DNA of 27,592 bases from a virus (Duplodnaviria > Heunggongvirae > Uroviricota > Caudoviricetes), in the IMG/VR virus record IMGVR_UViG_2522572164_000008, one strand, 5' to 3'. Numbering within the stretch: the stretch's first letter is position 1; the number at the start of each line of letters is the position of its first letter. Under the pieces are notes generated by a model. The model was given only the letters and a program-made list of their open reading frames with translations, made no database searches and was not told the origin of the DNA. A program made the translations under genes and the position numbers. Positions 10,877 to 27,592 of this stretch are shown piece by piece.

Positions 10877-10908
10877 AAAGAGGCATCAGTCTATATTGAA
10901 GCCTCTTT
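10877..10908. terminator. Putative bidirectional terminator between convergent genes
   Basis: AAAGAGGC ... GCCTCTTT 8-bp inverted repeat followed by T-rich sequence, between the 225-aa gene stop and the integrase stop. The loop is long (16 nt). Confidence 0.4.
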
Positions 10909-10915
10909 ATTACGT

Positions 10916-11820
10916 CTATAGCGTTGTTTTACGCCTTAAATTTGATTTTTTATTGATTGATAAGCCTTTCTCTATTTCAGGGTAGCGTAAAAGCTCAATA
11001 TATTTTTTAAGCTCTATTGGAGAAGCTGCATTTTTGCTATATGTGCGGAATGTTTCTGTATTGCCGCGTGTATGGCCCAGGAGAAGGGCGATCCTGTCTT
11101 CTGGAATTTGATTTCGATCAAGAAGCTGTGCTACTCCGTGTCTCAGAGAATGAAACACTTTCCTTTCTGTTCCCTTTTCCCCTAAAGCCTTTCGTTTAGC
11201 TCTTGTAAATCGTTGTGTATGCCACGTAGAGCGTTTACCGTCAGCACGTTCTGTAATGCTGGCGTGATAGAACAAAAAGCCATTGTGAGGCTTTTCACGC
11301 AGCGACAACACCAACGGAGTGATAAGGTTATGCACAGGCACAACACGTGCCGCAGCTTTCGTCTTTCCCTGTGTGATTTCAAAACACAGCACACCTTCGA
11401 TCTCTTTCACATCGTCTATTGTGAGACTTGCTATCTCATTGATCCGCATACCTGTATATAAACCGATAAGACACAAAGCCGTCATTTCTTTGTTTTCTGC
11501 TGAATTACCGGAAAATACTTGCAACACCTGCAATAGCTCTTTGTTAGAAAATGCCTCGTAGCTCTCTCTACTTTGTGCCACATCAAGCCTATGCCCTCGC
11601 CAGGGGGAGAGCGCCCTTTCTGGCGCATCGTGGTAACGTGATGAAGCTAATTCCCATAGCTGGGCCATTGGACTGATATAATTTGCAATTGATTGTTGTG
11701 AAAGAGTTTTTTGCATGTGTTCAATCCAGCCTGTAACAGTGGTGCGGCTTACATCTTGCAATGCAATATCAGGCTTTTTACGGTAGGAGAGAAACATCTC
11801 TACCGCTTTTCTTGCCTTAG
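10916..11820 (-). pseudogene. Tyrosine integrase, C-terminal catalytic fragment (separated from its N-terminus by IS5)
   Basis: Contains H-x-x-R (FHSLRHG), LLGH and a C-terminal Tyr (RTYSK) typical of tyrosine recombinases. The first 23 codons of the ORF-track protein are read from inside IS5. Confidence 0.8.
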
Positions 11821-13015
<1,195 letters not shown>

Positions 13016-13479
13016 TTAGCTAAAGTGGCTGGCTTCTTCTTCGTGCTGTTAATTGTCAGGTAGATTTCAAGAATTTTAAGCAATGACGGACACGAAGACG
13101 CTGTATCTTGCACTCTGGTAGCTGTTTTGGCGTATTTAGCCTTACTGCGTAACAGTTCCAGCGTGTTTTCTATTGTGCTGTTTACAGGGGCAACACTCTC
13201 CCGTAAGCAATGGTATTCATCTGCAATCTGATCACGCTTTCTACGTGCAACACGAAGATTACTTGTGTGTAGACTTCTGACAAACGTCCTTTTTCCTTCA
13301 AAAAAGGGCTGCATATACACAGGCAGCGTGATCCTTAAATAGTAGTTACCGTAAGAATCACAGATTAAGTATTGGTTAGGCTTGTATCTCATAAAATCTC
13401 CGGCTAAAGTGTCGGAGCGTTTGTAATGTGAAAATTGATTGTGACGCATAGAAAATGATGATTTTTCTATAAGATTCAA
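13016..13479 (-). pseudogene. Tyrosine integrase, N-terminal fragment (continues at 11820-10916 across IS5)
   Basis: N-terminal integrase-like segment (YYLRITLP...GKRTFVRSL). The ORF-track protein then reads through into IS5 (about 36 aa of IS-derived sequence). Frame arithmetic shows the two fragments are in frame once IS5 and one TTAG copy are removed. Confidence 0.8.
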
Positions 13480-13644
13480 TCAATTAGTAATGGTCGTAGG
13501 TGATGGCATTAACACGAGATTAATCGAGTGTTTTACTCCTATTATCGGCACCATTCTAATGTCTCCCCAAGTCTACTCAAGTATTTAAAAACCTCTTATA
13601 ATCCGCATGTTAGCGCCCCTTTTAGTCTTTTGACGTCTACTTAA

Positions 13645-13717
13645 GTACCCCAAAATCTACAGTCAATTGGGGGTACTTTTGGGGGTATTTGCTGTTCAGT
13701 TTAGTGGAGGTACCCCC
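13645..13717. promoter_or_regulatory. GGGGGTA(C/T)/TACCCC(C) repeat cluster in the inter-integrase region
   Basis: Four copies in rev-fwd-fwd-rev orientation (13645-13651, 13669-13676, 13681-13688, 13709-13717), immediately upstream of and overlapping the integrase RBS. Confidence 0.4.
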
Positions 13718-13719
13718 AA

Positions 13720-14934
13720 GTGAAACTCAATGCCCGTCAAATAGACACTGCCAAGCCAAAAGAGAAGGCTTACAAGCTGGCTGATGGTGGTGGTCTGTAT
13801 CTCTTGGTAAAACCTAGTGGAGGAAAATATTGGCGCTTCAAGTATCGTGTAGCTGGTAAAGAGAAGCTGTTAGCACTAGGTGTGTATCCTGAAGTTACTT
13901 TGGCTGATGCTCGTGCAAAACGTGAAGAAGCTAAAAGGGGTATCGCTGGGGGTATCGATCCGATGGAAGCGAAACGAGAGGAAAAGATTGCCCGGGAAAC
14001 GCAGTTAAACAACACCTTCAAAGATATTGCCCTTGAGTGGCACAGCAGCAAATTAAAAAAATGGTCTGCTGGTTATGCTTCAGACATCCTCGAAGCCTTC
14101 AACAAAGATGTGTTCCCTTACATTGGCAAAAAACCAATCGCCGAAATCAAACCACTTGAACTGCTGAATGTGCTGCGGCGCATCGAGGGGCGCGGTGCTA
14201 CCGAAAAAGCCAAAAAAGTGAGGCAGCGATGCGGGGAAGTTTTCCGCTATGCAATTGTCACTGGACGTGCTGAGTATAACCCTGCACCGGATCTCACCAG
14301 CGCGATGCAAGGTCATGAATCTAATCATTATCCTTTCCTCACAGCCAAAGAATTACCTGATTTTTTCAAGGCATTGTCCAGTTACTCAGGAAGTGCATTG
14401 GTTGTTATGGCGGCTCGTCTACTGATTATCACCGGTTTGCGGACTGGCGAACTGCGCGGTGCATTATGGGATGAAATCGATCTCAACAAGGCTATCTGGG
14501 AGATACCTGCTTCACGGATGAAAATGCGTCGCCCTCATGTGGTGCCTTTGTCTAAGCAGGCTCTTTCGCTTATTGGGCAGATTAAAGAATTAACTGGCAA
14601 TTATCCGCTTATGTTTCCCGGCCGTAATGATCCAAGGAAAACAATGAGCGAGGCTAGCATAAACCAAGTATTTAAACGCATCGGCTATAACGGAAAGGTT
14701 ACTGGTCATGGATTCCGGCACACCATGAGCACCATTTTGCATGAGCAGGGCTATAACACCGCGTGGATAGAGACGCAGCTCGCACACGTCGATAAAAACT
14801 CAATTCGTGGCACATACAACCATGCGCAATATCTGGATGGACGGCGGGAAATGCTTCAGTGGTACGCCGATTATATGGATTCGCTCGAGCATGGCGGAAA
14901 TGTGGTGCATGGTGAGTTCGGAAAATGCGGGTGA
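13720..14934 (+). CDS. Tyrosine integrase, P4/CP4-57-like family (404 aa)
   Basis: GTG start with GGAGG 9 nt upstream; N-terminus ARQIDTAKPKEKAYKLADGGGLYLLVKPSGGKYWRFKYR typical of P4-type integrases; catalytic R...HGFRHT...Y region near the C-terminus. Confidence 0.9.
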   Translation: MKLNARQIDTAKPKEKAYKLADGGGLYLLVKPSGGKYWRFKYRVAGKEKLLALGVYPEVTLADARAKREEAKRGIAGGIDPMEAKREEKIARETQLNNTFKDIALEWHSSKLKKWSAGYASDILEAFNKDVFPYIGKKPIAEIKPLELLNVLRRIEGRGATEKAKKVRQRCGEVFRYAIVTGRAEYNPAPDLTSAMQGHESNHYPFLTAKELPDFFKALSSYSGSALVVMAARLLIITGLRTGELRGALWDEIDLNKAIWEIPASRMKMRRPHVVPLSKQALSLIGQIKELTGNYPLMFPGRNDPRKTMSEASINQVFKRIGYNGKVTGHGFRHTMSTILHEQGYNTAWIETQLAHVDKNSIRGTYNHAQYLDGRREMLQWYADYMDSLEHGGNVVHGEFGKCG

Positions 14935-15062
14935 CTGGTTGAGTATACAGTAGTAGACTTTGAGCGACGAAAGAAAAGGCTGTGTCTAGGGGCGCTCCCG
15001 AAAATCCGTACATCTCGACGGACTGGTACAGCCACTACAGTAGAGGACGCTGAGGTGTGCGT

Positions 15063-15860
15063 ATGATTGATATTCATGCCGAATTAAACGAATACAAAAA
15101 AGATTTTATTTCTTTACGTGAATTTCTTGAGGTCGTGCTTAAGGTCGCTGGTGATGATTATGATGTTTCAGATGTCATAACTTGGATACTCAGGAGAATA
15201 AGCGGAGAACATATCCGCCTGTACACAGTAAATGAATTTAAGCTGTTGGAATCTTTTTGTAACCCGTATCGGGATGAATTTGATTATGATGTTCTTTATA
15301 GAAATCTGAATGCGGTTCGGAAACGTGGTTGTTTACCTGGTGAGAGGGATGAAAATGGTTTTCTGGTGTCCGGTTATTGGGAAGATCCCGAATTTGAGAA
15401 CATTGGATTTATAAGGGGTGAAATTTTCGCAATTTTTCCCGATGTCCTTGACGCGTTAACGAAGCTGGAAGGCGCTAACTCTTCTGAAAATGACGAGGCA
15501 CAAGGACGCGATATTGAAAAGAAAGAGTTGCGTACAGAGGATGATTTATTATCCCAAATCGCAATGCTGGAAAAAGAAAACGCAGAGTTAAGGGCAAGGA
15601 TAGAGCAGTTAGAGCAAGAGCGCCCGATACACTTATATAAATACTGGGATAAAGACCCATTAGCTAAGGCTATTGAGATTAGAAACAGAGAGTGGGCCAA
15701 TTACGATCCAGAAAATGATTTTGCCACTAGGGGAAATCAAGAAGCGATAACCAGGGAGCTTAAGCAGTGGGGGGCAAGTAATGCTCTTGCAACGCTCATA
15801 GAGAGGACTGCCTGCCCTATTAACCGAGACAACAGCCAAAAGAACGCAAAGCCGGATTAA
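15063..15860 (+). CDS. Hypothetical protein with predicted coiled-coil segment (about 265 aa)
   Basis: ATG at 15063 with GAGGTG 6 nt upstream; coiled-coil-like EDDLLSQIAMLEKENAELRARIEQLEQE. Sits between int and alpA. Confidence 0.6.
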   Translation: MIDIHAELNEYKKDFISLREFLEVVLKVAGDDYDVSDVITWILRRISGEHIRLYTVNEFKLLESFCNPYRDEFDYDVLYRNLNAVRKRGCLPGERDENGFLVSGYWEDPEFENIGFIRGEIFAIFPDVLDALTKLEGANSSENDEAQGRDIEKKELRTEDDLLSQIAMLEKENAELRARIEQLEQERPIHLYKYWDKDPLAKAIEIRNREWANYDPENDFATRGNQEAITRELKQWGASNALATLIERTACPINRDNSQKNAKPD

Positions 15861-15875
15861 CGCACCATACCGCAT

Positions 15876-15985
15876 ACCCTGAGGGTGATTTACTGTTACC
15901 CTGAGGGTATTTTTTTATCTTCCCCGTCAATTTTACCATCACCCTTAGGGTTAATTTCCTTCCGGTAACCATTAGGCCTGAGGGT
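15876..15985. promoter_or_regulatory. Array of ACCCT-N-AGGGT palindromes upstream of alpA
   Basis: Perfect copies at 15876-15886 and 15898-15908, variant ACCCTTAGGGT at 15941-15951, partial at 15977-15985. Confidence 0.5.
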
Positions 15986-16054
15986 ATGAAAATATTCGTT
16001 ATTTCTGTGCCATGATTACCTCGTCAAATTGAGTAGACGTTATGAGGTAAATAT

Positions 16055-16252
16055 ATGTCAAATACGCTTATTCGTTTAACAGAAGTTCAGCGTAGAACTG
16101 GATATAGCAAGGCATGGATTTATCGCCTTATGGGGCAAGGTAAATTTCCTGCATCAGTTAAAATTGGCTCGCGAGCTATTGCTTTCGTTGAGAGTGAAAT
16201 TGACGAGTGGATTAATCAGCGTATTGCTGAATCACGCGGAACAGCTACCTGA
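16055..16252 (+). CDS. alpA: AlpA-family phage transcriptional regulator/excisionase-like HTH protein (65 aa)
   Basis: Sequence LIRLTEVQRRTGYSKAWIYRLMGQGKFPASVKIGSRAIAFVESEIDEWI matches the AlpA family pattern; RBS GAGGTAAATAT-ATG. Confidence 0.85.
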   Translation: MSNTLIRLTEVQRRTGYSKAWIYRLMGQGKFPASVKIGSRAIAFVESEIDEWINQRIAESRGTAT

Positions 16253-16330
16253 TTAAATGGCTACGGGGCCAGAAGCCCCCAGCTATCCACCAGCAAATAA
16301 AAGTAACTTAATTCGATAGCAGGAGTTTTT

Positions 16331-17131
16331 ATGAAACTGCGAAAAACGCCCGTACAGGGGCAGGGCTTCGTTCGGCCTGAAAACCAGAATCTGCAAAATT
16401 TCGGCGAAATTATCCCGGTTATTTCCGGCGTTATTGGCGGGCGTGAAACCAATATTGTTAGCGGCAGAGCGTTGCATAAGGCGTTAGGTGTAGGTCGCGT
16501 TTTCCGTTCGTGGATCAAGGGGCGCATTGAAGAATACGGCTTCACGGAAGGCGTGGATTATGAGGTTGTTGAATATTTGAGCCGACCCGATCCGGTGAGC
16601 GCAAAATCTCGCCAGCAAACAGCTCTTGAGTACATCATTACCGTGAACATGGCGAAAGAACTGGCGATGGTCGAACGCACCGAACAGGGGCGCGCCGTTC
16701 GTCAGTACTTCATCAAATGCGAGGAAGAGCTACACAAGGTTGCGCCTGTACGTTCCGCAGCGTTACGCCGGGAACTGAAAGCCCGTATCACAGTTGCCAG
16801 CTACTTTAAGCCAATGTGTGCCGCGCTGGAGGACTACCGGGCTGAACTGGGTAAAAACACTCTACAGCACCACTACACCACGGAAGCCAATATGCTGGCG
16901 CGTATCGTGCTGGGTGGCATGACTGCAAAACAGTGGGCGCAGGTGAACGGCATCACAGGCGAACCACGCGACCACATGAGCACGTTGCAGCTTGAGCACC
17001 TTTCTTACCTTGAGCAGAGCAATATCACGCTGATTGAGTTAGGCCAGGACTACCACCAGCGGAAGGCTGAATTAATTCGTCTTTCGCAGCGTTGGTTAGC
17101 CCGTCGCATGGAGGAAAACAGCCATGTGTAA
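16331..17131 (+). CDS. Phage antirepressor-like protein (266 aa)
   Basis: RBS AGGAG; N-terminal region resembles prophage antirepressor proteins as recalled. Family assignment tentative. Confidence 0.6.
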   Translation: MKLRKTPVQGQGFVRPENQNLQNFGEIIPVISGVIGGRETNIVSGRALHKALGVGRVFRSWIKGRIEEYGFTEGVDYEVVEYLSRPDPVSAKSRQQTALEYIITVNMAKELAMVERTEQGRAVRQYFIKCEEELHKVAPVRSAALRRELKARITVASYFKPMCAALEDYRAELGKNTLQHHYTTEANMLARIVLGGMTAKQWAQVNGITGEPRDHMSTLQLEHLSYLEQSNITLIELGQDYHQRKAELIRLSQRWLARRMEENSHV

Positions 17132-17590
17132 CGCTCTGACCGTTACAAAAAGAGAAAGCGCCCCGTTGCCGGAGCGCCTTTGTGAACGAATAGCCTACTG
17201 CGCCATATTGCTTACTGTCTACGAGGCAGATTATAGCGTTGTGGTCGCACAGAGTGAAGGCGCTGATCACCGTTACTACAGCACGCCAGAAATGCAGAAT
17301 ATTTTGCTGCAAAATGCCGTTGGCCACGCTGTCCGGAAAGCAAAAAATTTTGCTGGTGGCGCGACTGATGCGATTTTGTCAGGTCGCCAGGTGCTGATCA
17401 ATCTGATGTCTGATTTCGTTCTGGATAAAACAAAGGCGACCGCAGAGAGCCGCCAGTGGAAAAGCTACATACTTGAACGCATCACCAACAATGCCACATT
17501 TGCGGCTGGTGGGCAATGTGTCAGCTTTGCACCAATGACTCTAGGTTTAACTGAGGGTCATTATGGTGAATATGCTGGCTTGCTGGTGGG
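17124..17590 (+). other. Coding-like 5' part of a 1.57-kb stop-free frame; status unresolved, possibly a decayed or fused gene
   Basis: ATG at 17124 overlaps the upstream stop and has GGAGGA 9 nt upstream, but the frame has no stop until 18692 and runs antisense through a plausible minus-strand gene and a promoter region. The end coordinate is arbitrary. Confidence 0.3.
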
Positions 17591-17848
17591 CTATTCCTGC
17601 TCTTTAACATCGCCATGCCGCGATGTTTTCCAGGTATGCGACCCCATTTTTGTGCGCCTGTACTCTTTAAGGAATTTCTCAAGGATAAACGCACAGGGCG
17701 CGAATCTGTCTGACTCATGCTCGTACGCTATCTTTCTGCGCTGTCTTTTCCGTGCCGGTGATGGTGTATTGGTTGATTCTTTGTTGGTCATGGCGCTGCC
17801 CTGTAAAACGATGCACCGTAGTTCCTCACACCACGGCGCTGGTGATGG

Positions 17849-18154
17849 TTACTCCTGTTCTTTGGCCTTGCGCCGCTGGAGTTCTTCACGCGCGACGGTG
17901 ACGAGTTGCCCGATCTCCTCGGCTGCTTTGACACCGATTTTTTCCACCTGCGCCAGTGCATCGAGCGAAGAAACCAGGGGATTTTCTCCGCTTCCTTCTG
18001 CCTGGCGGCGGGCGATTTCACCGCGAACGGCTGTAATCACGAAAGCGGCTATTGTTTCCCCTTCCGTTTTCGAATTTTCCATTTCCTCGATTACATCATG
18101 GGGGAAGCGGATATTTTTCATTTGCGATCTGCTGTTGATGTTTCCTGTTGCCAT
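17849..18154 (-). CDS. Putative ribbon-helix-helix-type regulator with C-terminal coiled coil (101 aa)
   Basis: MKNIRFPHDVIEEMEN strand-helix pattern; divergent from the downstream plus-strand operon across a palindrome-rich region. No clear SD. Confidence 0.6.
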   Translation of the reverse strand: MATGNINSRSQMKNIRFPHDVIEEMENSKTEGETIAAFVITAVRGEIARRQAEGSGENPLVSSLDALAQVEKIGVKAAEEIGQLVTVAREELQRRKAKEQE

Positions 18155-18176
18155 CAGAATGTCCGGTTATTTTGAG

Positions 18177-18279
18177 GTGTGTACACATTACACCAAAAGG
18201 TGTGTTGATAAAACACTTGACACTGTAGCACACTTAAATCTAATCTGTATATACACTAATGATTGTGGTGTATATACAG
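18177..18279. promoter_or_regulatory. Divergent promoter/operator region with three palindromes
   Basis: Perfect 12-bp inverted repeat CTGTATATACAC (18245-18256) / GTGTATATACAG (18268-18279) with 11-bp spacer; TGTGTACACA (18177-18186); ACACCAAAAGGTGT (18190-18203); TTGACA at 18217-18222 with a TAATCT -10 candidate 18 bp downstream. Confidence 0.55.
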
Positions 18280-18346
18280 CAACGCCCCGCAGTGGTGGCA
18301 CACATGCAGGGCGTCTAACCAAACCGTTAAACGAGGTAACGATTAT

Positions 18347-18692
18347 GGCTGGAACACAGCATACCCAAACTCACCCTAAATTTATATACACCTTCCTGGC
18401 GGTGCACCGTGATTGCATAGCTGACGGTAAAAACACTGTACACGTAGCCGCTGATACGCTGGTTGATGCCTGCGAGATGCTCAATGACATGGGCTATATC
18501 TCGGCAACATGGAAAGGGCGCGAAGAAAACACGCTGTTTATTCAGAAATGCGAGAACAATTTTATCTGGCGTTTTATCGCCCTGAGCACAGCACAACCGC
18601 GCGTAATTCACATCGAGGCCACCAGCGAACAGGAAGCGCGTCAGCAATCTCCTGATGGCTGCGTGATGGTATTCGCTGCCCGTATTCGCTAG
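18347..18692 (+). CDS. Hypothetical protein (115 aa)
   Basis: ATG at 18347 with GAGGTAACGATT upstream; this is the 3' part of the long stop-free frame and is probably the real gene. Confidence 0.5.
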
Positions 18693-18702
18693 GAGGTGCA
18701 CC

Positions 18703-19068
18703 ATGCATAACCTGTCAATTTATGACCTTAACAGCATTCAGTTTCGTGAGAAATTCACCGAGCAGCTACTGGTTAACGTGGAGAATGGACGCGTGGTAAG
18801 TAATTATCACCTGCCGGATGGTGCAATTGCCGGAAGCGTTGAAGCATTGCTGGAACTGGCAGAACGTGCGCGACTTATTAAGCCGTTAACGAACCATCAC
18901 GATGATGATCTGCATTTTACCGGACGCATGGTGAGTCACTACGAAAACGGCGTCGAGGTATCCCGCGAACGGCTGCGTGATGATTGCTGTTTCGGAACAC
19001 TGCCGGAATTTAGCGAACTGCTGACCCGTTGCGATTACCGGATCATTCAGGGGGGAAGTCATGGGTAA
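18703..19068 (+). CDS. Hypothetical protein (121 aa)
   Basis: Strong RBS TAGGAGGTGCACC-ATG. Confidence 0.6.
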   Translation: MHNLSIYDLNSIQFREKFTEQLLVNVENGRVVSNYHLPDGAIAGSVEALLELAERARLIKPLTNHHDDDLHFTGRMVSHYENGVEVSRERLRDDCCFGTLPEFSELLTRCDYRIIQGGSHG

Positions 19069-19261
19069 TCAGCCAGCAACAATGACAATTACCCTGAATG
19101 TGCCAGATGATTTCACCGGGCGCGTACTGGTTTACCTGGATAAAGGGAAAGTGAAATCACAATGCCGACTGCGAAATAATGAAATTGTAAGTACGGTAGA
19201 AGGCTTTTCTGAACTATGTATTCGTGCAGGAATAAAACCGGAACTGCTGACAGGAAAATAA
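19061..19261 (+). CDS. Hypothetical small protein (66 aa)
   Basis: RBS GGGGGGAAGTC-ATG; start overlaps the upstream gene end. Confidence 0.5.
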   Translation: MGNQPATMTITLNVPDDFTGRVLVYLDKGKVKSQCRLRNNEIVSTVEGFSELCIRAGIKPELLTGK

Positions 19262-19265
19262 AACC

Positions 19266-19556
19266 ATGAAAAAGAAAAATTCTGGCTTTACTGCCAGCGG
19301 CCTCTCTCGGTCTGCAATTCGCTCTGGCGATATTTACCGCGACACCAGACGTGGGGGACGAGTGGTTATTCGTCACGTTACGCCAGGCAATATCACCTAC
19401 CGCCGTGAGGCTTACGAATATGACTGCGTAATGCCGCGCCGTCAGTTTGAGCGTGATTTTATTCTGGTGGAAAACAAACAATTGGCGGTGGCAAGACGTG
19501 CAGCCTCGAATATTAAAAAAATCCGGGCAATGTTGGTTGCGGGAGGTAAGAAGTGA
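19266..19556 (+). CDS. Hypothetical small basic protein (96 aa), possibly of a conserved island-associated family
   Basis: Motif GDIYRDTRRGGRVVIRHV...YEYDCVMPRRQFERDF resembles small proteins recalled from P4-integrase islands; stop overlaps the start of the next gene. Confidence 0.5.
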   Translation: MKKKNSGFTASGLSRSAIRSGDIYRDTRRGGRVVIRHVTPGNITYRREAYEYDCVMPRRQFERDFILVENKQLAVARRAASNIKKIRAMLVAGGKK

Positions 19557-21685
19557 AAAACGCACCGAATTTAAAATATCAGCCAAAGGATAAATTCACC
19601 GAGGTAATCATTTTTGCCGGGACGGATGCTTACGCCCATGCTCAACACTGGATTGAAAGCGAAGGACGAAAACACGGCGATAACGTGCCACCTGTTTACC
19701 TGGGGCCAACGCAACTGGCAGATCTGGCTAATATCCGCATTATCGACGATGAGCGCCGCTTTGCGCGTGTTTATATCGCGGGGGAGATAGAGCCAATCCA
19801 GATCAATGCTATCGCTGAAAAGCTGGCGCTGGCTGGCGTACAGGATGCGAAATTATACAAAGGCATCACCGACCGGGAGCCGGAGAACTGGCGCGACTAC
19901 CTGCAACGGATCCGCGAACAGGCAGAGCGCGGGGAAACCATTCCTGAAGGAATCGGAATAGCTGGTGGATCACCCGGTAAAACAGACCCCATGAAACCGC
20001 ATATTACCGAAAAAGACGGGGCGCTCTGGTATATCGAGCCAATCCCCAACACCAGGGCAGAGGAGATGAATTATAAAGAAACCTGGCTGAGTGACCGGAT
20101 GCGCACGGCAGGTATTGGTAACGACGGAAGGGAAGCGTATCTGATCATTGAAATGATCCCGGAAGGGACACAAAAAATTATTTACGAAGCGATGCCGCGC
20201 AATGAAATCGGTATGCCCGCAGGATGGGCGCGATTACGTGGGCGGGGAGTTGCAATCACTACCAGTGCCCATTTACTGAACAAACTGGCGGAATACCTGC
20301 AACGTCATGGAGATCGCACGGTGTGGGAGGTCACATCAACAGCAGGTTGGCATTGTGGAGCCTATGTTATGCCTGATGGCGAGGTGATTGGTGTGCCTGA
20401 CCGTCCCGTAGCATTCTGCGGCGGATCTGCCGCCATCAAAGGCTATATTGTCAGGGGCACGGTGCATGAATGGCGAAATAATGTTGCTTCTCTGATGCGT
20501 GGCAATCACTCAATGATGCTTGGGGTGCTGGTCGGGCTGGCAGCCCCGCTAAATTCCCTTGTGGGTGGTAGTTGTTTTGGTATTCATCTTTTCGCGCAGT
20601 CGTCAGCGGGGAAAACCACGACTGTGGAGGCCGCCACCAGCCTTTATGGCGACCCTGAAATGCTTAAACTCTCGTGGGATGCCACCCGGCACGGGCTGAC
20701 AGTGGAAGCAGCTGCACGTAATGACGGTTTTATCCCTATTGATGAAATTGGTCAGGGAGGAAGGGTTAATGACATTGCGCAATCCGCCTACAGCCTGTTT
20801 AACGGTGTGGGCAGGATTCAGGGGCGCAAGGACGGCGGTAATCGTGCGGTAATGCGCTGGAAAATAGCGGCACTAAGCACCGGAGAAGAAGATTTTGAAA
20901 CCTTCCTGTTAAAAGGGGGAATTGCCCCAAAGGCAGGGCAACTGGTGCGACTGCTAAGCATTCCCTTTACCGATACAACGGTGTTTAACGGTTATGACGA
21001 TGGTGATCAACATGCCAGGGCCATAAAGCGACTTTCATCAAATTATTGTGGCGCTGCGGGACGTGAGTGGGTGCGCTGGTTATCCGCTCACAAGGAGCTG
21101 GCTATCAACACCACTTCAGATAAAGAAAATGCCTGGCTGGGAAATCTGCCTGAAAATGCCTCGTCACAGGTAAGGCGAGTGGCATCGCGATTCGCCATGC
21201 TGGATGCAGCCGGAGAGCTTGCCACCGCAATTACTGGCTGGACAGCTGAAGAATGCCGGGAAGCAACGCAACGGGCTTTTGATGACTGGCTACAGGATTT
21301 CGGGCTGGAAAACCGGGAAAAATATCAGGTCATCAGTCGCGCCCGTGACTTTATTCAGCGCCATGCCCTGAGTCGTTTTCAGCCTTATACCTACGGGAAA
21401 AGCAATGGGGATATGGATAACCACTATGCATCCCGTATAAGCAATCTTGCAGGCTATCTTGTCAGCGGTAAGCGTGAGGATGGAAAACCCGAATATCACA
21501 TTATCCCGTCAGTGTTTGATAGCGAAATTTTATGCGGTATATCCAGGAACTTTGGGTGTCAGGCGCTGGAAGAAGCCGGAATGCTGGTTTGTGCAGAACC
21601 TGGTCGCTGGACATCGAAAACAGTGAAGATTAACGGAACACAGCAGCGATTTATCGTGCTGATTGATCAGGCAGAAGACGAATAG
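19553..21685 (+). CDS. Replication protein, primase/helicase-like P-loop NTPase (710 aa)
   Basis: GTG start with GGAGGT upstream; Walker A GxxxxGKT (FAQSSAGKTTTVE); large N-terminal domain; followed directly by an iteron array. Confidence 0.75.
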   Translation: MKNAPNLKYQPKDKFTEVIIFAGTDAYAHAQHWIESEGRKHGDNVPPVYLGPTQLADLANIRIIDDERRFARVYIAGEIEPIQINAIAEKLALAGVQDAKLYKGITDREPENWRDYLQRIREQAERGETIPEGIGIAGGSPGKTDPMKPHITEKDGALWYIEPIPNTRAEEMNYKETWLSDRMRTAGIGNDGREAYLIIEMIPEGTQKIIYEAMPRNEIGMPAGWARLRGRGVAITTSAHLLNKLAEYLQRHGDRTVWEVTSTAGWHCGAYVMPDGEVIGVPDRPVAFCGGSAAIKGYIVRGTVHEWRNNVASLMRGNHSMMLGVLVGLAAPLNSLVGGSCFGIHLFAQSSAGKTTTVEAATSLYGDPEMLKLSWDATRHGLTVEAAARNDGFIPIDEIGQGGRVNDIAQSAYSLFNGVGRIQGRKDGGNRAVMRWKIAALSTGEEDFETFLLKGGIAPKAGQLVRLLSIPFTDTTVFNGYDDGDQHARAIKRLSSNYCGAAGREWVRWLSAHKELAINTTSDKENAWLGNLPENASSQVRRVASRFAMLDAAGELATAITGWTAEECREATQRAFDDWLQDFGLENREKYQVISRARDFIQRHALSRFQPYTYGKSNGDMDNHYASRISNLAGYLVSGKREDGKPEYHIIPSVFDSEILCGISRNFGCQALEEAGMLVCAEPGRWTSKTVKINGTQQRFIVLIDQAEDE

Positions 21686-21717
21686 CACAACCTACGCTCG
21701 CAGAGGGTCAAAAATCG

Positions 21718-21990
21718 CGGGATATGCGGGATATCGGGATATGGAAATATATTGCATAAATATCAGTTATTTATGTGTTGTTGTCGTATCCCGCTGTATC
21801 CCGCCGTATCCCGGTATTTAGGTTTACGAGTGGTTGTAAAACAAACAAAATAACCGTATCCCGGAATGTATCCCGCAATATCTTATTGATGCATAAGCAA
21901 AAAAAAACTTACCGGGATATGGCGGGATATGAAAAATCACATAACGCTATGAAATAAATGGGTTTTTTTTGTTTATATCCCGATATCCCG
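21718..21990. repeat. Iteron array: 12 copies of the octamer CGGGATAT (or its complement) in alternating blocks, with A/T runs; candidate replication origin
   Basis: Forward copies at 21718, 21727, 21735, 21913, 21923; reverse copies at 21787, 21797, 21807, 21857, 21868, 21975, 21983; A- and T-runs at 21899-21907, 21963-21970 and 22005-22013. Confidence 0.7.
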
Positions 21991-22143
21991 GTAAAAAATG
22001 TTTTTTTACGCCTTATAGAGTACAGAAAAAAAGGTTGTTCAAATTTTGTATTACGATTGACTACTGTCAGCCATCCCACCCGGAAAAGGCATAAAAGCTG
22101 ACAGGTAACTGACAATGAGACTGTTTTATTTTTACGTGCCGAT

Positions 22144-22701
22144 ATGACGGCAACAATGATGGGGCAGAGCATGACAAAACTGACCATTAACAGAAAACCG
22201 AAAGGTATTTACGGCACGCCGCAGAAAACGACGCAGGCGGCACAGAAGCAGGATAAAACCACATCGGCACATAAAGTGATGCCCGGTAACCAGAAAGCGC
22301 AGCAGAAGCCCACAGGGGCGACACCGTGGCGGCATATGACCAAACGCCAGCGCAAAAACCGCAGGCGCGTTAACCGTCTCACTGAGTTGTGGCCTGAATT
22401 ATTCAGCCGGGAAGCACCGAAGCCACTTAAGGTGGGGATATTCGACGACCTGATGCAGGATATCGCCGTCAGGGGGCTGGCATTCGGTCCAGGGGCATTA
22501 CGTGCGACGCTGGCATCTTATGCGCAGTGTCCGCGCTATTACCGCGCCTTAATGGCTGGTGGGGTGCGCTATGACCTGAAAGGCCAGCCGTGCGGCGAGG
22601 TGACACCACAGAAACAGAACGAGGCAGAAATGCGGCTGATGGCGCTGAATGAGAAGCGCAAACGCCAGCGCCGGGCAGCCAGGGAGAAAACAGGCGCATG
22701 A
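22144..22701 (+). CDS. FinO/ProQ-domain RNA-binding protein-like (185 aa)
   Basis: Core PLKVGIFDDL...LRATLASYAQCPRYYRALMAGGVRYDLKGQPCGEV follows the ProQ/FinO domain pattern as recalled; basic N-terminal tail. Start codon uncertain. Confidence 0.65.
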   Translation: MTATMMGQSMTKLTINRKPKGIYGTPQKTTQAAQKQDKTTSAHKVMPGNQKAQQKPTGATPWRHMTKRQRKNRRRVNRLTELWPELFSREAPKPLKVGIFDDLMQDIAVRGLAFGPGALRATLASYAQCPRYYRALMAGGVRYDLKGQPCGEVTPQKQNEAEMRLMALNEKRKRQRRAAREKTGA

Positions 22702-22985
22702 TTCACGACAGCAAAGCGGAAGCACTGGAAGCGCGTGGACTGTACCGGAGAGCGGCGGCGCGGTGGGCTGAGGTCATCATGCTGGCGAATGATGACAAGG
22801 CACGGGAACAGGCGGCAAAACGTCGCGCGGAATGTATCCACAAGGCAGCACGCCCACCAGCAAGGCAGGATAATTTCGGGGAGATGCGCGAAACCATCAG
22901 CCGGGCACATGCCGGGATGGGATTACATCAGCCCAATGGTGAGGCATTCAGGAAATACCAAAAAAAGAACAATTGTAGTCAGTAA
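22698..22985 (+). CDS. PerC-like transcriptional activator-like small protein (95 aa)
   Basis: N-terminus AEALEARGLYRRAAARWAEV resembles PerC/Pch-family activators as recalled; ATG overlaps the upstream stop (ATGA). Confidence 0.5.
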   Translation: MIHDSKAEALEARGLYRRAAARWAEVIMLANDDKAREQAAKRRAECIHKAARPPARQDNFGEMRETISRAHAGMGLHQPNGEAFRKYQKKNNCSQ

Positions 22986-23119
22986 CAGAGGATGGGATTC
23001 TCTTGGTTTTTTGTTGATGCTTTCTGAGGAAATCTACTACGTTGCTGAGCAGATGAATATTCAATTGCATCTGGGTTCCTGATAAGATTAATCTGAATAT
23101 TTTCATTTGGAATAGGGAT

Positions 23120-23923
23120 ATGAATAAAACTTTAATTGCAACATTAGTCGGTATAGTAATGTTAACCGGATGTGGGCCAGAAGAGTTAACTCCAGAACAG
23201 AAACAGGAAGTAGCTGCTCTTAAAGCTGAACTGTCGCAAACGGAAGGTGAAATATCAGCAGCTAAGGAAGTTGACCAGCAGTTTTCTGGTGGGTTGATAA
23301 AAAATCTGACAACAGCAAGACTGGAAATATTAGGAACTAATAAAGCGCTTTTGGAACAGCGTATTAATGCTATTGAATCAGGTGCCAAAATTGATGTTGT
23401 TGTATCTGGAGTAAAACCTGATCCTGAGCTTGCGGCTTCAATTAAAACTGAAATTGACAGCTTAGATGCAAAAATCAACGAAGCCAAAGCTGATGCTCGT
23501 CAGTATAGTGGTGGTCTGATAAAGGTACTAAAATTATCTACTGTTGCCACTGAAGAGCAGACCATGGCAATGTTGCAGCAAAAGTACCTCACAGCCAAGT
23601 ATGGCCTCGCTGAAGTTAAGCTGGCATCAGTACAAGCTAATGACGCAAAAAACAGTACTGAAACGGAAGTAACAGCCAAAAATTCCCAAGAGCAACTTCC
23701 TTTACTCCCGCCAGCGGATGGTCCGTTTGGCTTAGAAGCCGGTCTTACACAGAAAAACATCGAAGATATGATCGGTGCTAAGCTCAAGCCACTACCAGAC
23801 AGTGTGAATCTGTATACTTCTGATAAATTACCGAAGCAAAACGCAGATTTTGAAATGTATGGTTTGCTGATCTCCCCGAAAGCTGGTTTATGTCAAATAC
23901 GGGCTTTAGGAAAAAAATATTGA
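23120..23923 (+). CDS. Lipoprotein (267 aa) with internal sequence repeats
   Basis: Signal peptide plus lipobox (MLTGC); internal repeat QQFSGGLIKNL / RQYSGGLIKVL; AT-rich relative to neighbours; RBS AGGGAT. Confidence 0.7.
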   Translation: MNKTLIATLVGIVMLTGCGPEELTPEQKQEVAALKAELSQTEGEISAAKEVDQQFSGGLIKNLTTARLEILGTNKALLEQRINAIESGAKIDVVVSGVKPDPELAASIKTEIDSLDAKINEAKADARQYSGGLIKVLKLSTVATEEQTMAMLQQKYLTAKYGLAEVKLASVQANDAKNSTETEVTAKNSQEQLPLLPPADGPFGLEAGLTQKNIEDMIGAKLKPLPDSVNLYTSDKLPKQNADFEMYGLLISPKAGLCQIRALGKKY

Positions 23924-23939
23924 TACTGATAGCTATGGA

Positions 23940-24263
23940 TTGGCTCTTAAATCCAAGTTTGAAGAATTGAGTAATTCTTTAAGTTCTCTGTATGGAAAGG
24001 CTGATACTACAGACTTTTTGCTGGCTGGTTCAATTTGGAAAGATCCTCAGGACTGGATGAGGGGGCTAAACAAAAAAGAACGCTTCTTATCTGCCACATG
24101 GAAGGGAACAAAAGAAATACCATTAAAAAACAATATTGATACTATATCTATTGAGGCCAGAGCGAACAATTCCACTCAGGGATATGTCTATCTGCAGTAC
24201 TCATTTACAAATGACGAAATTTGTCAGGCAGAAATTGAAGGGGCGAAAAAAAGTTCCCTTTAA
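23940..24263 (+). CDS. Hypothetical protein (about 107 aa, start uncertain)
   Basis: Open frame right after the lipoprotein gene; the first codon in the track is a non-ATG start; followed by a clear terminator. Confidence 0.35.
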   Translation: MALKSKFEELSNSLSSLYGKADTTDFLLAGSIWKDPQDWMRGLNKKERFLSATWKGTKEIPLKNNIDTISIEARANNSTQGYVYLQYSFTNDEICQAEIEGAKKSSL

Positions 24264-24275
24264 ACAATCCGTGCA

Positions 24276-24300
24276 AAGCCCCTTAGTAAGGGGCTTTTAT
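24276..24300 (+). terminator. Rho-independent terminator
   Basis: AAGCCCC-TTAGTAA-GGGGCTT stem-loop followed by TTTTAT. Confidence 0.6.
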
Positions 24301-24327
24301 ATATTAATGTTCAACGTGGGGGATTAG

Positions 24328-24651
24328 ATGAAAGATAATCTAGCAAAACTAATTGAAAATACTTTAAAAGATATTCTATTAGCTAATGCTGCTCTAACAT
24401 TCATTTTTGCAATACCAATGGCTATTATCAGTAGGCATGGGATGGGCATCACAATCTGGTTTATAACTGTGCTCATTGCACCTGCTCTGTGTGCAGTAGG
24501 TGCATGGCTTGTATCTCGAACATCCGGCCATGCTGAGGAGTTCTTTCATCGTCGGTGGGCTAAGCGAATTTATGTTTTTTATACTCTTGCGGCTGCCGAG
24601 TTTTTGCTTGTGTACTCAATCGCGCAAATAATGAAAAATCTGATGAAATAA
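24328..24651 (+). CDS. Small membrane protein (107 aa, two to three predicted TM helices)
   Basis: Hydrophobic segments AALTFIFAIPMAII and ITIWFITVLIAPALCAVGAWLV; RBS GGGGGATTAG-ATG. Confidence 0.6.
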   Translation: MKDNLAKLIENTLKDILLANAALTFIFAIPMAIISRHGMGITIWFITVLIAPALCAVGAWLVSRTSGHAEEFFHRRWAKRIYVFYTLAAAEFLLVYSIAQIMKNLMK

Positions 24652-24840
24652 TTAACAAGTTATTATCATGGAGCTTGTGGCTGTTAACCTGCAGTGAGGC
24701 GACAATCGTGTATTTATAAAAACTTCCCCTTTTCACTCCCCGCAGCTTCTTCTGCTATTGCCTTTATGTTTGCATGCACCAACATCTGCCATACCTTTGC
24801 AGAAAAATCAGAGCATTCAGTGCCGAAGGTTGGTTTATTG

Positions 24841-24933
24841 ATGCTTTTCGTTTCATTTGTTGCAATTGTCTCTGGTATCATTTCAATTTGTGCAATAATT
24901 GCAATTATTGTCATTCAGAAGGGATCATCATGA
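24841..24933 (+). CDS. Possible 30-aa single-pass hydrophobic peptide (alternative 55-aa form from ATG 24766)
   Basis: MLFVSFVAIVSGIISICAIIAIIVIQKGSS; stop overlaps the next ATG (ATGA). RBS spacing is suboptimal. Confidence 0.3.
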   Translation: MLFVSFVAIVSGIISICAIIAIIVIQKGSS

Positions 24934-25097
24934 AAAATCACGGAGTAAAGCCAGTTTTACTTTCCCGGAGGCAGATCGAAGCCCTGCAACGCATCCAGGA
25001 CGAAGAGCGTCAGAAATCTGTGCTTGGTGTGGCACCGTCGATTCATGTTATCGCTCGGCAACTGATGGATAAGGCACTTAAAGAGGTGAGACTGTGA
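24930..25097 (+). CDS. Hypothetical small protein (55 aa)
   Basis: ATG with AGAAGGGA upstream; overlaps both neighbours through ATGA and GTGA junctions. Confidence 0.4.
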   Translation: MKNHGVKPVLLSRRQIEALQRIQDEERQKSVLGVAPSIHVIARQLMDKALKEVRL

Positions 25098-25366
25098 AAT
25101 TAAATATCAGAGTGGATAAACGCCAGCTATGGCAGAAAAAAGAGAACAGCGAGGCATTCAGGGCGTTGCTGGTGGAAAATCTTCAGCATCGGTTCAGTGG
25201 AGAGTTGCCTGATGCTCTAGGGAAGAAACTGGAATCCCTGACGGTGGAAATTGGCGATTATGGCTTTGTTGATGTTGAAAGCACGACTGCCAACACAGAA
25301 ATCGTAAAACAGGTCGTCAATGATGTAATGAAAACCACGCTTAGCCAGCCATCCTGGCGCAACTGA
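25094..25366 (+). CDS. Hypothetical protein (90 aa)
   Basis: GTG start with AGAGGTGAG upstream; followed by a hairpin. Confidence 0.5.
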   Translation: MKLNIRVDKRQLWQKKENSEAFRALLVENLQHRFSGELPDALGKKLESLTVEIGDYGFVDVESTTANTEIVKQVVNDVMKTTLSQPSWRN

Positions 25367-25372
25367 ATCAGT

Positions 25373-25397
25373 AAGGGGCGGTTATTGCCCCTTTCCT
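25373..25397 (+). terminator. Putative terminator hairpin
   Basis: AAGGGGC-GGTTATT-GCCCCTT stem-loop followed by a weak T-rich tract. Confidence 0.45.
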
Positions 25398-25465
25398 CCA
25401 TACCCACAACGCATTCCCTTTCCGCATGAAATTATTTTTTATCGTATATGCATGAGGTGAGCTAC

Positions 25466-25993
25466 ATGTTGATGAGTAAAGCCGAATACGCCAAATACAA
25501 AGGCGTAAGCCGCCAGACAGTTTACGACTGGCTCGAGAAAGGCGAAGTGGTCATGTCCGGTAAAAAAATTGATGTGGAAGCGACAGAGCAGCGGAACAGC
25601 CCACCAGCACAGGGGAAAGACACCATTTCTGAAATGTGGCCAGAAAGAACGCTGGAAATGACATGGGGCGAGTTCTGGAAAGCAGTTAAGGCCAGAGACG
25701 GTAAAATTCCTGCGCCAGTAACGGACGAGGGCATACAGCAGCGTGTGCTGTATGCAGCCGGGGAATTAGGCTGGGAAGTGCACTTTCTTGATGATGGTGC
25801 TATCTGCCTTGAGGATGATGAAGGGCAGCATTACTTTGAAAAATACAATTTGCGAGGTAATGCCAGGCTGGCAATTCGTATGCTGCGTTGCGAACTCTGC
25901 TATGTTGCAGGTGATTATCCCGATGAACCGGAATCATGGAGTGAAGCCGGGTTAAACGCCCTGGCTGAGTGGGAAAAATCAGACCATCAATGA
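25466..25993 (+). CDS. HTH DNA-binding protein (about 175 aa), terminase-small-subunit-like or regulator-like
   Basis: N-terminal HTH SKAEYAKYKGVSRQTVYDWLEKGEV; GAGGTGA upstream; its stop is followed immediately by an array of direct repeats. Functional call speculative. Confidence 0.55.
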   Translation: MLMSKAEYAKYKGVSRQTVYDWLEKGEVVMSGKKIDVEATEQRNSPPAQGKDTISEMWPERTLEMTWGEFWKAVKARDGKIPAPVTDEGIQQRVLYAAGELGWEVHFLDDGAICLEDDEGQHYFEKYNLRGNARLAIRMLRCELCYVAGDYPDEPESWSEAGLNALAEWEKSDHQ

Positions 25994-25997
25994 CATC

Positions 25998-26221
25998 AAA
26001 AAGTGTCAAGTTGAGCAGCTTGCCGGGTTGACACTTTACACTCTGAACACGAAAAAGTGTCAACCTCGCTGTAAGCCCCGCCGTTACTGGCCTTGCGCCA
26101 GATTTACCACGTCAAAAAGCCGAAAAAATCGCGAAAAGTGTCAAGTTGCCATGCTTAGAAATGCCAGGGGAGGTTAAGTTTTGTTAAGGTTTTTCCCGAA
26201 AAAGTGTCAAGTGTGTCAACC
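25998..26221. repeat. Array of six copies of GAAAAAGTGTCAA(G/C)-type repeats (one inverted)
   Basis: Copies at 25998-26010, 26028-26039 (inverted), 26053-26066, 26133-26145, 26198-26211 and 26211-26221. Confidence 0.6.
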
Positions 26222-26596
26222 CGCGATATACAGATTTATTAAGGTTTTGAGCCAGAAAGAGTTAACCGCGCCGCTTTAGAAAACTTCAGGCACGCATTTG
26301 TGAAAGCATCAAATGAAGTTCTGTCATACTTTGCAAATCATGCAGATGCATCGTTACTGAGCATTTTAAGTTACAGTTGATGCGGACTGTCCACTTTAAC
26401 CTTTCAAAACGTTTCGTAGTAGGTACTAACTAGAATGCCAAGAGTCTTTCAGGTTCCGTGATGTTTAGCGTTGGATTTGATATTAAGTGTTTAAATTCAA
26501 TGTGTTACATTGTATTATAAAGTTTATTGCTAACAACTGTAGGGTAGATGCCAAGCGCACGCTAAGCATGTTATAATCATTTCAACTTTCATAATA

Positions 26597-27592
26597 ATGG
26601 ATACGAGAGTGGCGACGATAATCAAAAATATAGCAATCAAAGGTCTTTTTAAACGGAAGGACATTGATTGGAGTTTAAAAGATGTGAATGTTTTAGTGGG
26701 TAAAAATGGCTCAGGTAAGAGCACGATAATTCAAAGTGTTTTTGCCCTCTTAAAACAAGAATTAAATGAAAGTTTAAGTAATGCTGCGTTGGCTCAAATA
26801 ACATTGGCCAATGGAGGCACAATTACTCACAAAGTTAATTTTCGCGAAATTGACTCTGTCCAGCTTCTAAACCTACTTAATAACCTTAAGAAAAACAGTA
26901 TTAAAGGTAAATCAAAGGGTAAGGAAATAAAGGAGTTAAATGAACTTATTGAGTTGCTTGAATCGAAAAAAGAAGACACTGAAATTAAAGAGTTCGGGAT
27001 GGGAACTGTTAGCGTAAGTGATAATATTAAAAACACTAAGCGAATAAATGTTGAGTTAATATCAACTATCAATATGAGTGCCAATTCCATCTATGAATTC
27101 AAAAAAAGTGATGGTGAGCGCACCACAATTCTTGATATGGAAATTGCTGGTGAATTAGAAAGGTTAAAGAATACTTTCAAAGTAAGTGAGTCTAAAGGTA
27201 TTCTCATAAAGGATAAGTTGGAATCAGCTATAAATAATTTATTTTCTGAATGTAACAAAGTTGTTTCTTTTAGTAATGGTAACATTTCTATTAAGATGAG
27301 TGATTCTGGTGAAGATATTAGGTATAATCTTCTTTCATCAGGTGAACGTCAGTTGTTATATATTCTGATTAAAACAGCTAATACTTCATTGGATGAATCT
27401 GTCTTGTTGATGGATGAGCCAGAAATATCCTTGCACCTTACGTGGCAAGAAAGATTAATAAGCACCATCAAATCAATTAACGATAATTGTCAGTTAATTA
27501 TTGTTACTCATAGTCCTGCAATATTAATGAAAGGCTGGATGGATTCTTTCGTAGATATAAAAAATATTTCAAAGGAATCTTCTCATGACTGA
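26597..27592 (+). CDS. ABC-type/SMC-like ATPase (331 aa), defence-associated type
   Basis: Walker A GKNGSGKST, ABC signature LSSGERQ, Walker B LLMDEPE, H-loop IVTHSP; very AT-rich versus island backbone; TATAAT at 26573-26578 upstream. Confidence 0.85.
   Translation: MDTRVATIIKNIAIKGLFKRKDIDWSLKDVNVLVGKNGSGKSTIIQSVFALLKQELNESLSNAALAQITLANGGTITHKVNFREIDSVQLLNLLNNLKKNSIKGKSKGKEIKELNELIELLESKKEDTEIKEFGMGTVSVSDNIKNTKRINVELISTINMSANSIYEFKKSDGERTTILDMEIAGELERLKNTFKVSESKGILIKDKLESAINNLFSECNKVVSFSNGNISIKMSDSGEDIRYNLLSSGERQLLYILIKTANTSLDESVLLMDEPEISLHLTWQERLISTIKSINDNCQLIIVTHSPAILMKGWMDSFVDIKNISKESSHD
27585..27592 (+). CDS. Start of a translationally coupled downstream gene (truncated by the window end)
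   Basis: ATG at 27585 overlaps the ATPase stop (ATGACTGA) with AAGGAA 8 nt upstream; only 2.7 codons visible. Confidence 0.3.

Follow-up and report, generated by a model that had tools for sequence, protein, structure and literature searches.

A probable Gram-negative phage-inducible chromosomal island of the EcCIMP1 lineage, carrying a predicted PARIS system, in thrW of Escherichia coli O104:H4

What kind of mobile element occupies the right-hand half of the viral DNA record IMGVR_UViG_2522572164_000008 (27,592 nucleotides, referred to here in its entirety as the window)? A preliminary description of this stretch had proposed a satellite resembling either P4 or phage-inducible chromosomal islands (PICIs), built from an integrase gene, alpA, an antirepressor-like gene, a divergent regulator, small conserved open reading frames (ORFs), a large P-loop replication protein followed by iterons, and AT-rich accessory genes. 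All of these are present, in the order and on the strands first described. The element is best explained as a Gram-negative PICI of the EcCIMP1 lineage, a satellite of the PICI family, and we put the probability of this assignment at roughly three in four. The assignment is preferred because of the attachment-site boundaries, the kinship with EcCIMP1, the order of four functional zones, the coupling of a replication gene to an iteron origin, the occurrence of the same backbone at multiple chromosomal sites, and the PARIS defense cargo.

EcCIMP1, the PICI of E. coli MP1, resides in a tRNA-Thr gene between proA and yagU, with the att core TCCTATTATC, and encodes Int, AlpA, an antirepressor, Ash/Icd, a primase, and PerC; it excises and circularizes, is transduced only with the helper phage Kapi1, and needs both alpA and int for transduction, AlpA being required for excision as well (Pick, Stadel and Raivio, ISME J 2025, PMC11773190). 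When the two elements are compared protein by protein (EcCIMP1 is locus L002 in our set), the island of the window proves to share the thrW site and the core TCCTATTATC, and its proteins are 97% (Int), 81% (AlpA), 59% (AntA), and 48% (PerC, against EcCIMP1_025) identical to those of EcCIMP1, with 43% identity over 613 residues in the DUF927 core of the replication protein. Both elements also carry DUF4222 and Icd-like genes; EcCIMP1 is without capsid or terminase genes, the island has no capsid gene and no clear terS, and both fall into SatelliteFinder Type C. Integration in thrW, the identical core, and the near-identical integrase place the island in an EcCIMP1-like lineage, and EcCIMP1, an experimentally verified Gram-negative PICI, is the closest described relative. 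The suggestion of a PICI-like satellite is thus borne out by the shared att site, Int, AlpA, AntA, and helicase, by the attR that was found, and by PARIS in a variable slot.

The source and limits of the island can be stated precisely. Positions 13400 to 27592 of the window are essentially identical in seven E. coli O104:H4 genomes and in strain 55989. A 48-kb O104:H4 reference locus from FDAARGOS_349 (L001) supplied the sequence past the window end; the island differs from its L001 copy by one extra A and one mismatch and in no other way. The window from 13537 to its end is the first 14.1 kb of an island inserted in the 3′ end of thrW, a tRNA-Thr gene. The attL core, CTCCTATTATCGGCACCA (13537–13554), is identical to the last 18 bases of thrW (L001 4177–4194) and includes the EcCIMP1 core, so that the left end lies 183 bp further left than position 13720, where it had originally been placed. 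The preliminary description had the island continuing past the window and took a downstream attR or direct repeat as one test of its case; in the complete genome AriB and then an attR core do follow. The latter is an imperfect copy, TTCCTATTATCG-CACCA, at L001 32482–32498, equivalent to about window position 28882 or some 1.3 kb past the window end. From attL to attR the island measures 15.4 kb, within the range of about 10–20 kb expected of PICIs, and, as is also expected of them, it is flanked by direct repeats, both copied from the 3′ end of thrW, with a tyrosine integrase at one end.

In L001 the island comes after proA and thrW and is followed by a truncated LysR gene and paoD. The right flank is the truncated LysR (yagP-like) gene in every examined genome in which the element abuts paoD (L001, L003, L004, and L008), and in K99B and 55989 the island directly adjoins thrW. 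The backbone of the island recurs not only at thrW but also beside dinD, beside smrA, and beside the ETT2 cluster of type III secretion genes. The ends are further marked by arm-type sites. Four copies of TTGGGGGTA(C/T) lie between 13643 and 13720, with a tandem direct pair (13667–13690) set between two inverted copies, the last of which adjoins the start codon of int. Exact TTGGGGGTA occurs four times in the 48-kb locus, each time at an island end, and two copies with one mismatch are located there as well. A doubled motif, TTGGGGGTAC-TT-TTGGGGGTAT, occurs about 133 bp inside attL (+133) and about 77 bp inside attR (−77). The GC content is about 0.50 in the core of the island, 0.40 at 23000–25000, and 0.32–0.38 at 26000–27592.

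The integration and excision module begins with a P4-type tyrosine integrase of 404 residues (13720–14934, plus strand), which matches Arm-DNA-bind_3, Phage_int_M, and Phage_integrase. The alpA gene (16055–16252, plus strand; PF05930 at 2.4e-19) lies downstream of int in the same orientation, as in PICIs generally. The succession of int and alpA had been read correctly, but two features between the genes had been passed over. One is an int-alpA RNA motif (Rfam RF02996; 14979–15046, plus strand) that scores 44.2 bits over the full-length model, for which the gathering score is 35.8; it is also found in the sibling islands L003–L005 and not in EcCIMP1. The other is an ORF of 267 residues (15057–15860, plus strand) in the 5′ accessory position, which is kept in the sibling islands and has no match in Pfam, PHROGs, NCBIfam, PADLOC, or PDB sequences. 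Upstream of alpA, three ACCCTNAGGGT palindromes (15876–15951) and one half-site, together spanning 15876–15987, are candidate regulator-binding sites; 0.38 such palindromes would be expected, and the sibling islands have three to five copies. By analogy, AlpA is presumed to be the master activator and excision factor.

The large P-loop protein of the preliminary description is encoded at 19553–21685 on the plus strand. Its 710 residues comprise an N-terminal TOPRIM-like fold (residues 1 to about 125), a β-rich linker domain, and a P-loop helicase of the DUF927 type in which Walker A (GKT) and Walker B motifs can be recognized. The designation as a replication protein stands; that of a primase does not fare as well, since the N-terminus offers only a TOPRIM-like fold, Pfam finds the DUF927 domain only, and no zinc ribbon was detected in the protein. 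Alignment to the replication protein of EcCIMP1 begins at residue 308 of the latter, and the first 300 or so residues, annotated by RefSeq as TOPRIM, have no counterpart here. At the position of the catalytic glutamate of the DnaG EGxxD motif, in a register that was set by eye, all aligned members seem to have alanine or valine. The protein of the island most likely serves as a replicative helicase and initiator whose TOPRIM-like domain is degenerate.

Immediately downstream is the replication origin (21718–21990), in which 12 CGGGATA(T) iterons are arranged in five clusters of alternating orientation with AT-rich spacers between them. CGGGATA occurs 16 times in the window, where about two copies would be expected by chance; 12 of the 16 fall within 273 bp, and none of 100 shuffled sequences reached 16. 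The arrangement of a replicase module followed by an iteron origin, characteristic of PICIs, is therefore present in the form of DUF927 and 12 iterons, even if primase activity is doubtful. A weak Rfam match to MIR2670 over the iterons was discarded as an artifact of their inverted repeats.

Sibling islands that have another helicase carry other iterons in the same place, namely GGTAGACAGTT, AAAAGTGAGG, and TGAACCAAC. An N-terminal TOPRIM-like module of about 130 residues is common to the sibling islands, where it has been joined to helicases of three unrelated families, and each such replication gene is followed by an iteron sequence of its own (L004 13082–13414; L005 10249–10640; L002 21275–21396). 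Since replication genes with different helicases each have their own downstream iterons, gene and origin appear to be swapped as one cassette; this pattern in the sequences supports the exchange of cognate rep–ori cassettes between sibling islands.

Distal defense cargo had been anticipated in the preliminary description, and the 3′ end of the island provides it. Immune systems have been described at the 5′ or 3′ end of PICIs, and a 3′ immune hotspot is already familiar in general terms. Here the variable slot starts at 26267 (26267–27592 within the window, plus strand) with a sigma-70-like promoter at 26548–26577, followed by ariA, the gene for the ABC ATPase of PARIS. The ariA gene, on the plus strand from 26597 or 26609 to 27592, ends exactly at the window end (best PADLOC match AriA at 4e-43; AAA_21), and ariB follows just past it at L001 31185–32165 (best PADLOC match AriB at 4e-22; DUF4435). 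PARIS has been defined by an adjacent pair of an AAA_15 or AAA_21 ATPase (at least 32 or 27 bits) and a DUF4435 protein (at least 27 bits) (Rousset 2022); the pair in the island scores 74.2 bits for AAA_21, 71.9 bits for AAA_15, and 62.6 bits for DUF4435, and the two genes overlap by 8 bp. AriA has 331 residues here and 464 in strain B185, and only its C-terminal 90 or so residues align to the solved AriA structure 8ux9 (E = 4e-17). For AriB, a sequence search of the PDB gave no match. PARIS systems act by abortive infection, which anti-restriction proteins such as Ocr set off and in which AriB cleaves tRNA. Judged from its sequence, the system of the island is a divergent subtype of PARIS with a short AriA, and for it such an activity and such a trigger are predictions.

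The limits of the slot are sharp. In BLAST comparisons between islands, homology ends at window position 26266 and sets in again at L001 32403, precisely where the arm motif lies, and the slot makes up the final 2.5 kb ahead of attR. At least seven different cargoes are found there across the sibling islands: PARIS in O104:H4 and cS33a; DUF4747 and 199-residue proteins in K99B (L003 18758–21392); a PDC-S02-like 355-residue protein and a 229-residue protein in ARS-C101 (L005 14814–17832); a 662-residue protein with an RNA-binding domain in A41 (L006 6200–8800); SieB in ECamp52; 275-residue and 259-residue proteins in EC5 (L008 6390–8000); and a 193-residue protein in QML220601 (L009 6239–7049). 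When PADLOC was applied to two of these pairs (DUF4747 with the 199-residue protein, and the 355- with the 229-residue protein), the sole match was a weak one of the 355-residue protein to PDC-S02. By their position, the uncharacterized occupants are candidate anti-phage genes. PARIS is thus carried by a lineage of the EcCIMP1 type, and the sharply bounded 3′ slot could be mined for new defense genes.

Between alpA and the replication gene lies a regulatory region. An antirepressor of the AntA/AntB family, a protein of the Bro network, is encoded at 16331–17131 on the plus strand (PF08346 at 7e-23; phrog_5817, “anti-repressor Ant,” at 2e-41). A strong hairpin terminator (17155–17180; 11-bp stem with seven GC pairs and a minus-strand T-run) separates the alpA–antA unit from a leftward unit, in which an ORF of 66 residues (17591–17791, minus strand; phrog_21027 at 8e-33; annotated in RefSeq) is co-transcribed with a gene for a YlcI/YnfO-family protein of 101 residues (17849–18154, minus strand; NF041551 at 8e-18), a divergent candidate repressor. 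The divergent promoter and operator region (18175–18392) contains TGTATATACA, a perfect inverted repeat of 12 nucleotides with an 11-nucleotide spacer; palindromes of this type lie at 18246 and 18269 (both perfect) and at 18381 (degenerate), and a TTGACA can be read directly from the sequence at 18218. The divergent regulator and its operator were therefore correctly recognized. The ribbon-helix-helix (RHH) fold attributed to the regulator is an unproven guess from the sequence pattern: a β-α-α succession is compatible with RHH, a Pfam match to PSK_trans_fac falls below threshold (E = 0.003), and a sequence search of the PDB found no relative of the protein.

To the right of the operators follow an Icd-like gene (18345–18692, with a RefSeq start at 18489; plus strand; NF033153 at 2e-22, with matches to PHROG “transcriptional repressor” families) and three small conserved ORFs (18703–19556, plus strand) that encode proteins of 121 and 66 residues, both phrog_340, and a DUF4222 protein of 96 residues. 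An Rfam scan of the island at E ≤ 1 found no C4/isrK (CI/seqA-type) immunity RNA. The regulatory RNAs differ between the groups: this island and L003–L005 have the int-alpA RNA and are without C4/isrK, whereas EcCIMP1 has C4 and isrK (L002 26600–26827) and is without the int-alpA motif. These sequence features suggest that control may be protein based in the O104:H4-type group and may depend on RNA-based immunity in the EcCIMP1 group.

Downstream of the origin, the genes for a ProQ/FinO-family RNA-binding protein (22144–22701, plus strand; PF04352 at 3e-23) and a PerC-family regulator (22698–22985, plus strand; PF06069 at 1e-31) precede a lipoprotein gene (23120–24263, plus strand; lipobox LTGC), whose product has 380 residues in reference genomes, is conserved without change of length throughout the Enterobacterales, and is nowhere annotated. 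It is always paired with a predicted membrane protein of 107 residues (24328–24651, plus strand) that has hydrophobic segments in its translation. The two genes occur together in the E. coli siblings L003, L004, L008, and L009, and proteins of matching lengths (380 and then 107 residues) are adjacent in the Enterobacter loci L013 and L015. They occupy a second, smaller variable slot, between perC and an ORF of 55 residues, that contains the lipoprotein pair, or NUDIX and DUF2213 genes, or nothing, depending on the island. The 55-residue ORF and one of 90 residues (24930–25366, plus strand) stand ahead of the last core gene; they are annotated in all sibling islands and gave no family matches in profile scans.

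A life cycle for this element can be modeled on those of EcCIMP1 and EcCICFT073. The island would lie silent in the chromosome until a helper prophage enters the lytic cycle, at which point transcription of alpA would rise, and AlpA and Int, bound at the TTGGGGGTA arm sites, would drive excision to a circle. The rightward operon would then express the DUF927 helicase, which would fire the adjacent iteron origin, and the amplified DNA would be packaged in particles made by the helper and integrate in thrW of the next host. The regulatory, or “Bro,” zone would consist of AntA together with the divergent YlcI-like regulator and its palindromic operators; the ProQ/FinO and PerC proteins, the lipoprotein/membrane pair, and a terminal winged-helix protein would constitute the late zone. 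PARIS, an abortive-infection system that appears to have its own promoter, would protect host and island against competing phages. For this copy of the island, we infer helper dependence, induction, and packaging by analogy with those relatives.

Several observations weigh against assignment to the PICIs. The core by which SatelliteFinder recognizes them consists of an integrase, a regulator, a primase-replicase, a capsid-morphogenesis gene, and terS; the island has three of these five, with no capsid-morphogenesis gene and no clear terS, and is therefore scored as Type C, a class that, as the authors of SatelliteFinder caution, also takes in elements that are not satellites. EcCIMP1 itself transfers at very low frequency (PMC11773190). 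A search of the island for lambda cosN (up to two mismatches) and for P2/P4 cos (up to three mismatches) found neither, leaving cos-type packaging unsupported. The late zone is without the homologues of P22-like ejection proteins that EcCIMP1 shares with its helper; since the genes held in common with Kapi1 are missing, a different helper is likely. One base of the thrW 3′ end is missing from the attR core. Finally, the lipoprotein gene is frameshifted in the window, where an A7 run at 23905–23911 replaces the A6 of the reference and splits the gene into ORFs of 267 and 107 residues; either slipped-strand variation or a sequencing error would account for the additional A.

Against these points stand others. 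No head-related Pfam or PHROG match was found among the island ORFs, and a capsid-morphogenesis gene is also missing from functional PICIs such as EcCIMP1 and from the staphylococcal SaPIs. The authors of the EcCIMP1 study place their functional element in Type C (PMC11773190). SatelliteFinder sets elements of this class aside, and they are under-counted for that reason. The tail, lysis, portal, and large-terminase families likewise have no match in Pfam or PHROGs among the island ORFs, as would be expected of a PICI. The same searches detected no capsid, portal, head–tail connector, or terL genes of the kind carried by capsid-forming PICIs (cfPICIs), and the island does not belong to that group.

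The main competitor, although an improbable one, is that the island is a decayed prophage or a fixed, immobile genomic island in which the integrase, AlpA, and replication genes are relics. Regions of this kind have historically been annotated as defective prophages, and studies of O104:H4 list this one only within GI-6; the imperfect attR core, the frameshifted gene in this copy, and the lack of an identified packaging determinant could be explained in the same way. However, the island retains intact int, alpA, antA, and helicase genes, intact iterons, and two intact att sites, and identical proteins (WP_000772650, WP_000072422, and WP_000786266) are encoded in the unrelated strains O104:H4 and K99B. 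A relic would also not readily account for a backbone that occurs at several chromosomal sites with different cargo and contains no remnant of a structural or lysis gene, and the closest relative, EcCIMP1, is experimentally mobile.

Transfer by conjugation, as an integrative mobilizable element that moves on a conjugative plasmid or an integrative and conjugative element, is considerably less probable. A ProQ/FinO-family protein is typical of conjugative plasmids, and neither capsid nor clear terminase genes are present. Yet the ORFs scanned include neither a relaxase nor a coupling protein nor any further conjugation gene, the AntA, Icd-like, DUF4222, and PerC families are associated with phages or satellites, and EcCIMP1 is transduced rather than conjugated. 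The P4-like satellite of the preliminary description, which would use a P2-like helper through capsid-size redirection by Psu, Delta, and Sid and packaging at a P2 cos, accommodates the P4-type integrase, the AlpA regulator, the large replication protein with an origin downstream of its gene, an Icd-like gene reminiscent of P4/P1 immunity regions, and a defense system first described in P4-like hotspots, but it is already refuted on its defining features, as the island ORFs have no Pfam or PHROG match to Psu, Delta, Sid, or Epsilon, the searches for a P2/P4 cos and for C4/isrK RNA were negative at the thresholds given above, the helicase is of the DUF927 and not the D5 type of P4 α, and int, alpA, and pri alone do not separate P4 from PICIs in SatelliteFinder.

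The final core gene ahead of the cargo slot (25466–25993, plus strand) encodes a protein of 175 residues with an N-terminal winged helix of the MerR/Xis/TerS type and a C-terminal α/β domain. Its position parallels that of terS in the SaPIs, which is likewise trailed by accessory genes at the 3′ end, and in one E. coli sibling the winged-helix gene follows a DUF2213 gene whose product weakly resembles a head protease. A search of PDB sequences gave nothing usable, and neither tblastn with the protein nor megablast with the whole island found a match in 50,697 phage records. Close membership in the Rpp family was not accepted, the match being limited to the winged helix. The fold evidence is compatible alike with a packaging role and with a role as excisionase or regulator, and it cannot separate them. 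As a speculation that we regard as rather unlikely when taken as a whole, the protein could be a new factor for packaging specificity or excision directionality that redirects a helper terminase of the non-cos (headful) type, in analogy to Rpp but with an unrelated α/β domain for binding its partner, and the slot that it borders could be a defense hotspot. Were the latter true, the DUF4747 and 199-residue pair, the 275- and 259-residue pair, the 355- and 229-residue pair, and the 662-residue protein would be new anti-phage systems.

Homologues of the 175-residue protein are also found in Klebsiella (L010–L012), at the end of satellite-like units that carry tail-type genes (Dit_like, Pam3_gp18, and Apex). 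Immediately downstream of these units come E217-like prophage tail genes or a truncated capsid gene, and the units resemble helper-embedded satellites, which suggests that the homologue is the 3′-terminal gene of such satellites.

The remainder of the window (1–13536) contains another AT-rich element, about 12.9 kb long and located between thrW and the attL of the PICI-like island in a tandem array. It encodes a resolvase (719–1276, minus strand), a replication-initiator-like HTH_36 protein (3275–3943), a weakly major-head-like protein (6854–7885; phrog_29, E = 5e-5), a tape-measure-like protein (8269–10110; 3e-34), a Dit-like tail protein (10158–10835), and, on the minus strand, a tyrosine integrase of the DUF6538 type. 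This element is missing from 55989 and K99B, and may be another satellite-like element. Its integrase gene is interrupted by a copy of IS5 (11821–13015, with a TTAG target duplication), an insertion that is missing in FDAARGOS_349. At the junction of the two elements (window 13492–13554 region), GGTCGTAGGT matches the bases of thrW that immediately precede the att core and is separated from the core by an insert of 35 bp containing the near-palindrome AACACGAGATTAATCGAGTGTT. The insert may be a scar of tandem integration.

Comparison with described systems indicates where the island is typical and where it departs from its relatives. In the four-zone scheme for Gram-negative PICIs (PMC10111431), the integration, Bro, replication, and late zones are recognizable in its gene order. 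It resembles the EcCICFT073/EcCIEDL933-type PICIs (Fillol-Salom 2018, 2019) in the order int-alpA-pri-ori, in an AlpA that would act as a helper-induced activator, in iterons 3′ of the replication gene, in the carriage of PerC, and in accessory or immune genes at its ends. With the helper-embedded PICIs (PMC10111431) it shares a doubled arm motif, which lies at about −80/−81 and +132 bp from the attP center in those elements and at −77/+133 here; the motif itself differs (TGTATTGC there, TTGGGGGTA here), as does the target, a prophage late gene in their case and a tRNA gene in this one. The likeness to P4 includes a defense hotspot able to hold PARIS, and the difference from it includes the absence of the CI RNA. 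The overlapping pair of an ABC ATPase and a DUF4435 Toprim nuclease in a satellite hotspot recalls PARIS of E. coli B185 (Rousset 2022; 8ux9, 8v45).

A further comparison is with EcCIMP1, an element of 20 kb with a full primase-helicase (TOPRIM and DUF927), C4/isrK RNAs with an Ash gene, a second alpA gene (alpA_1), ejection-protein homologues in common with its helper, and no known defense system. The O104:H4 island has instead a YlcI-like protein regulator with operators, the int-alpA RNA, the 267-residue 5′ ORF, an N-terminus in its replication protein that is TOPRIM-like only, the ProQ/FinO protein, the lipoprotein pair, the terminal winged-helix protein, and PARIS. These comparisons leave current concepts of such satellites unchanged and extend them to one more element: the thrW island of a well-studied outbreak pathogen, which probably takes its place in a PICI lineage that has been verified only recently and is poorly characterized.

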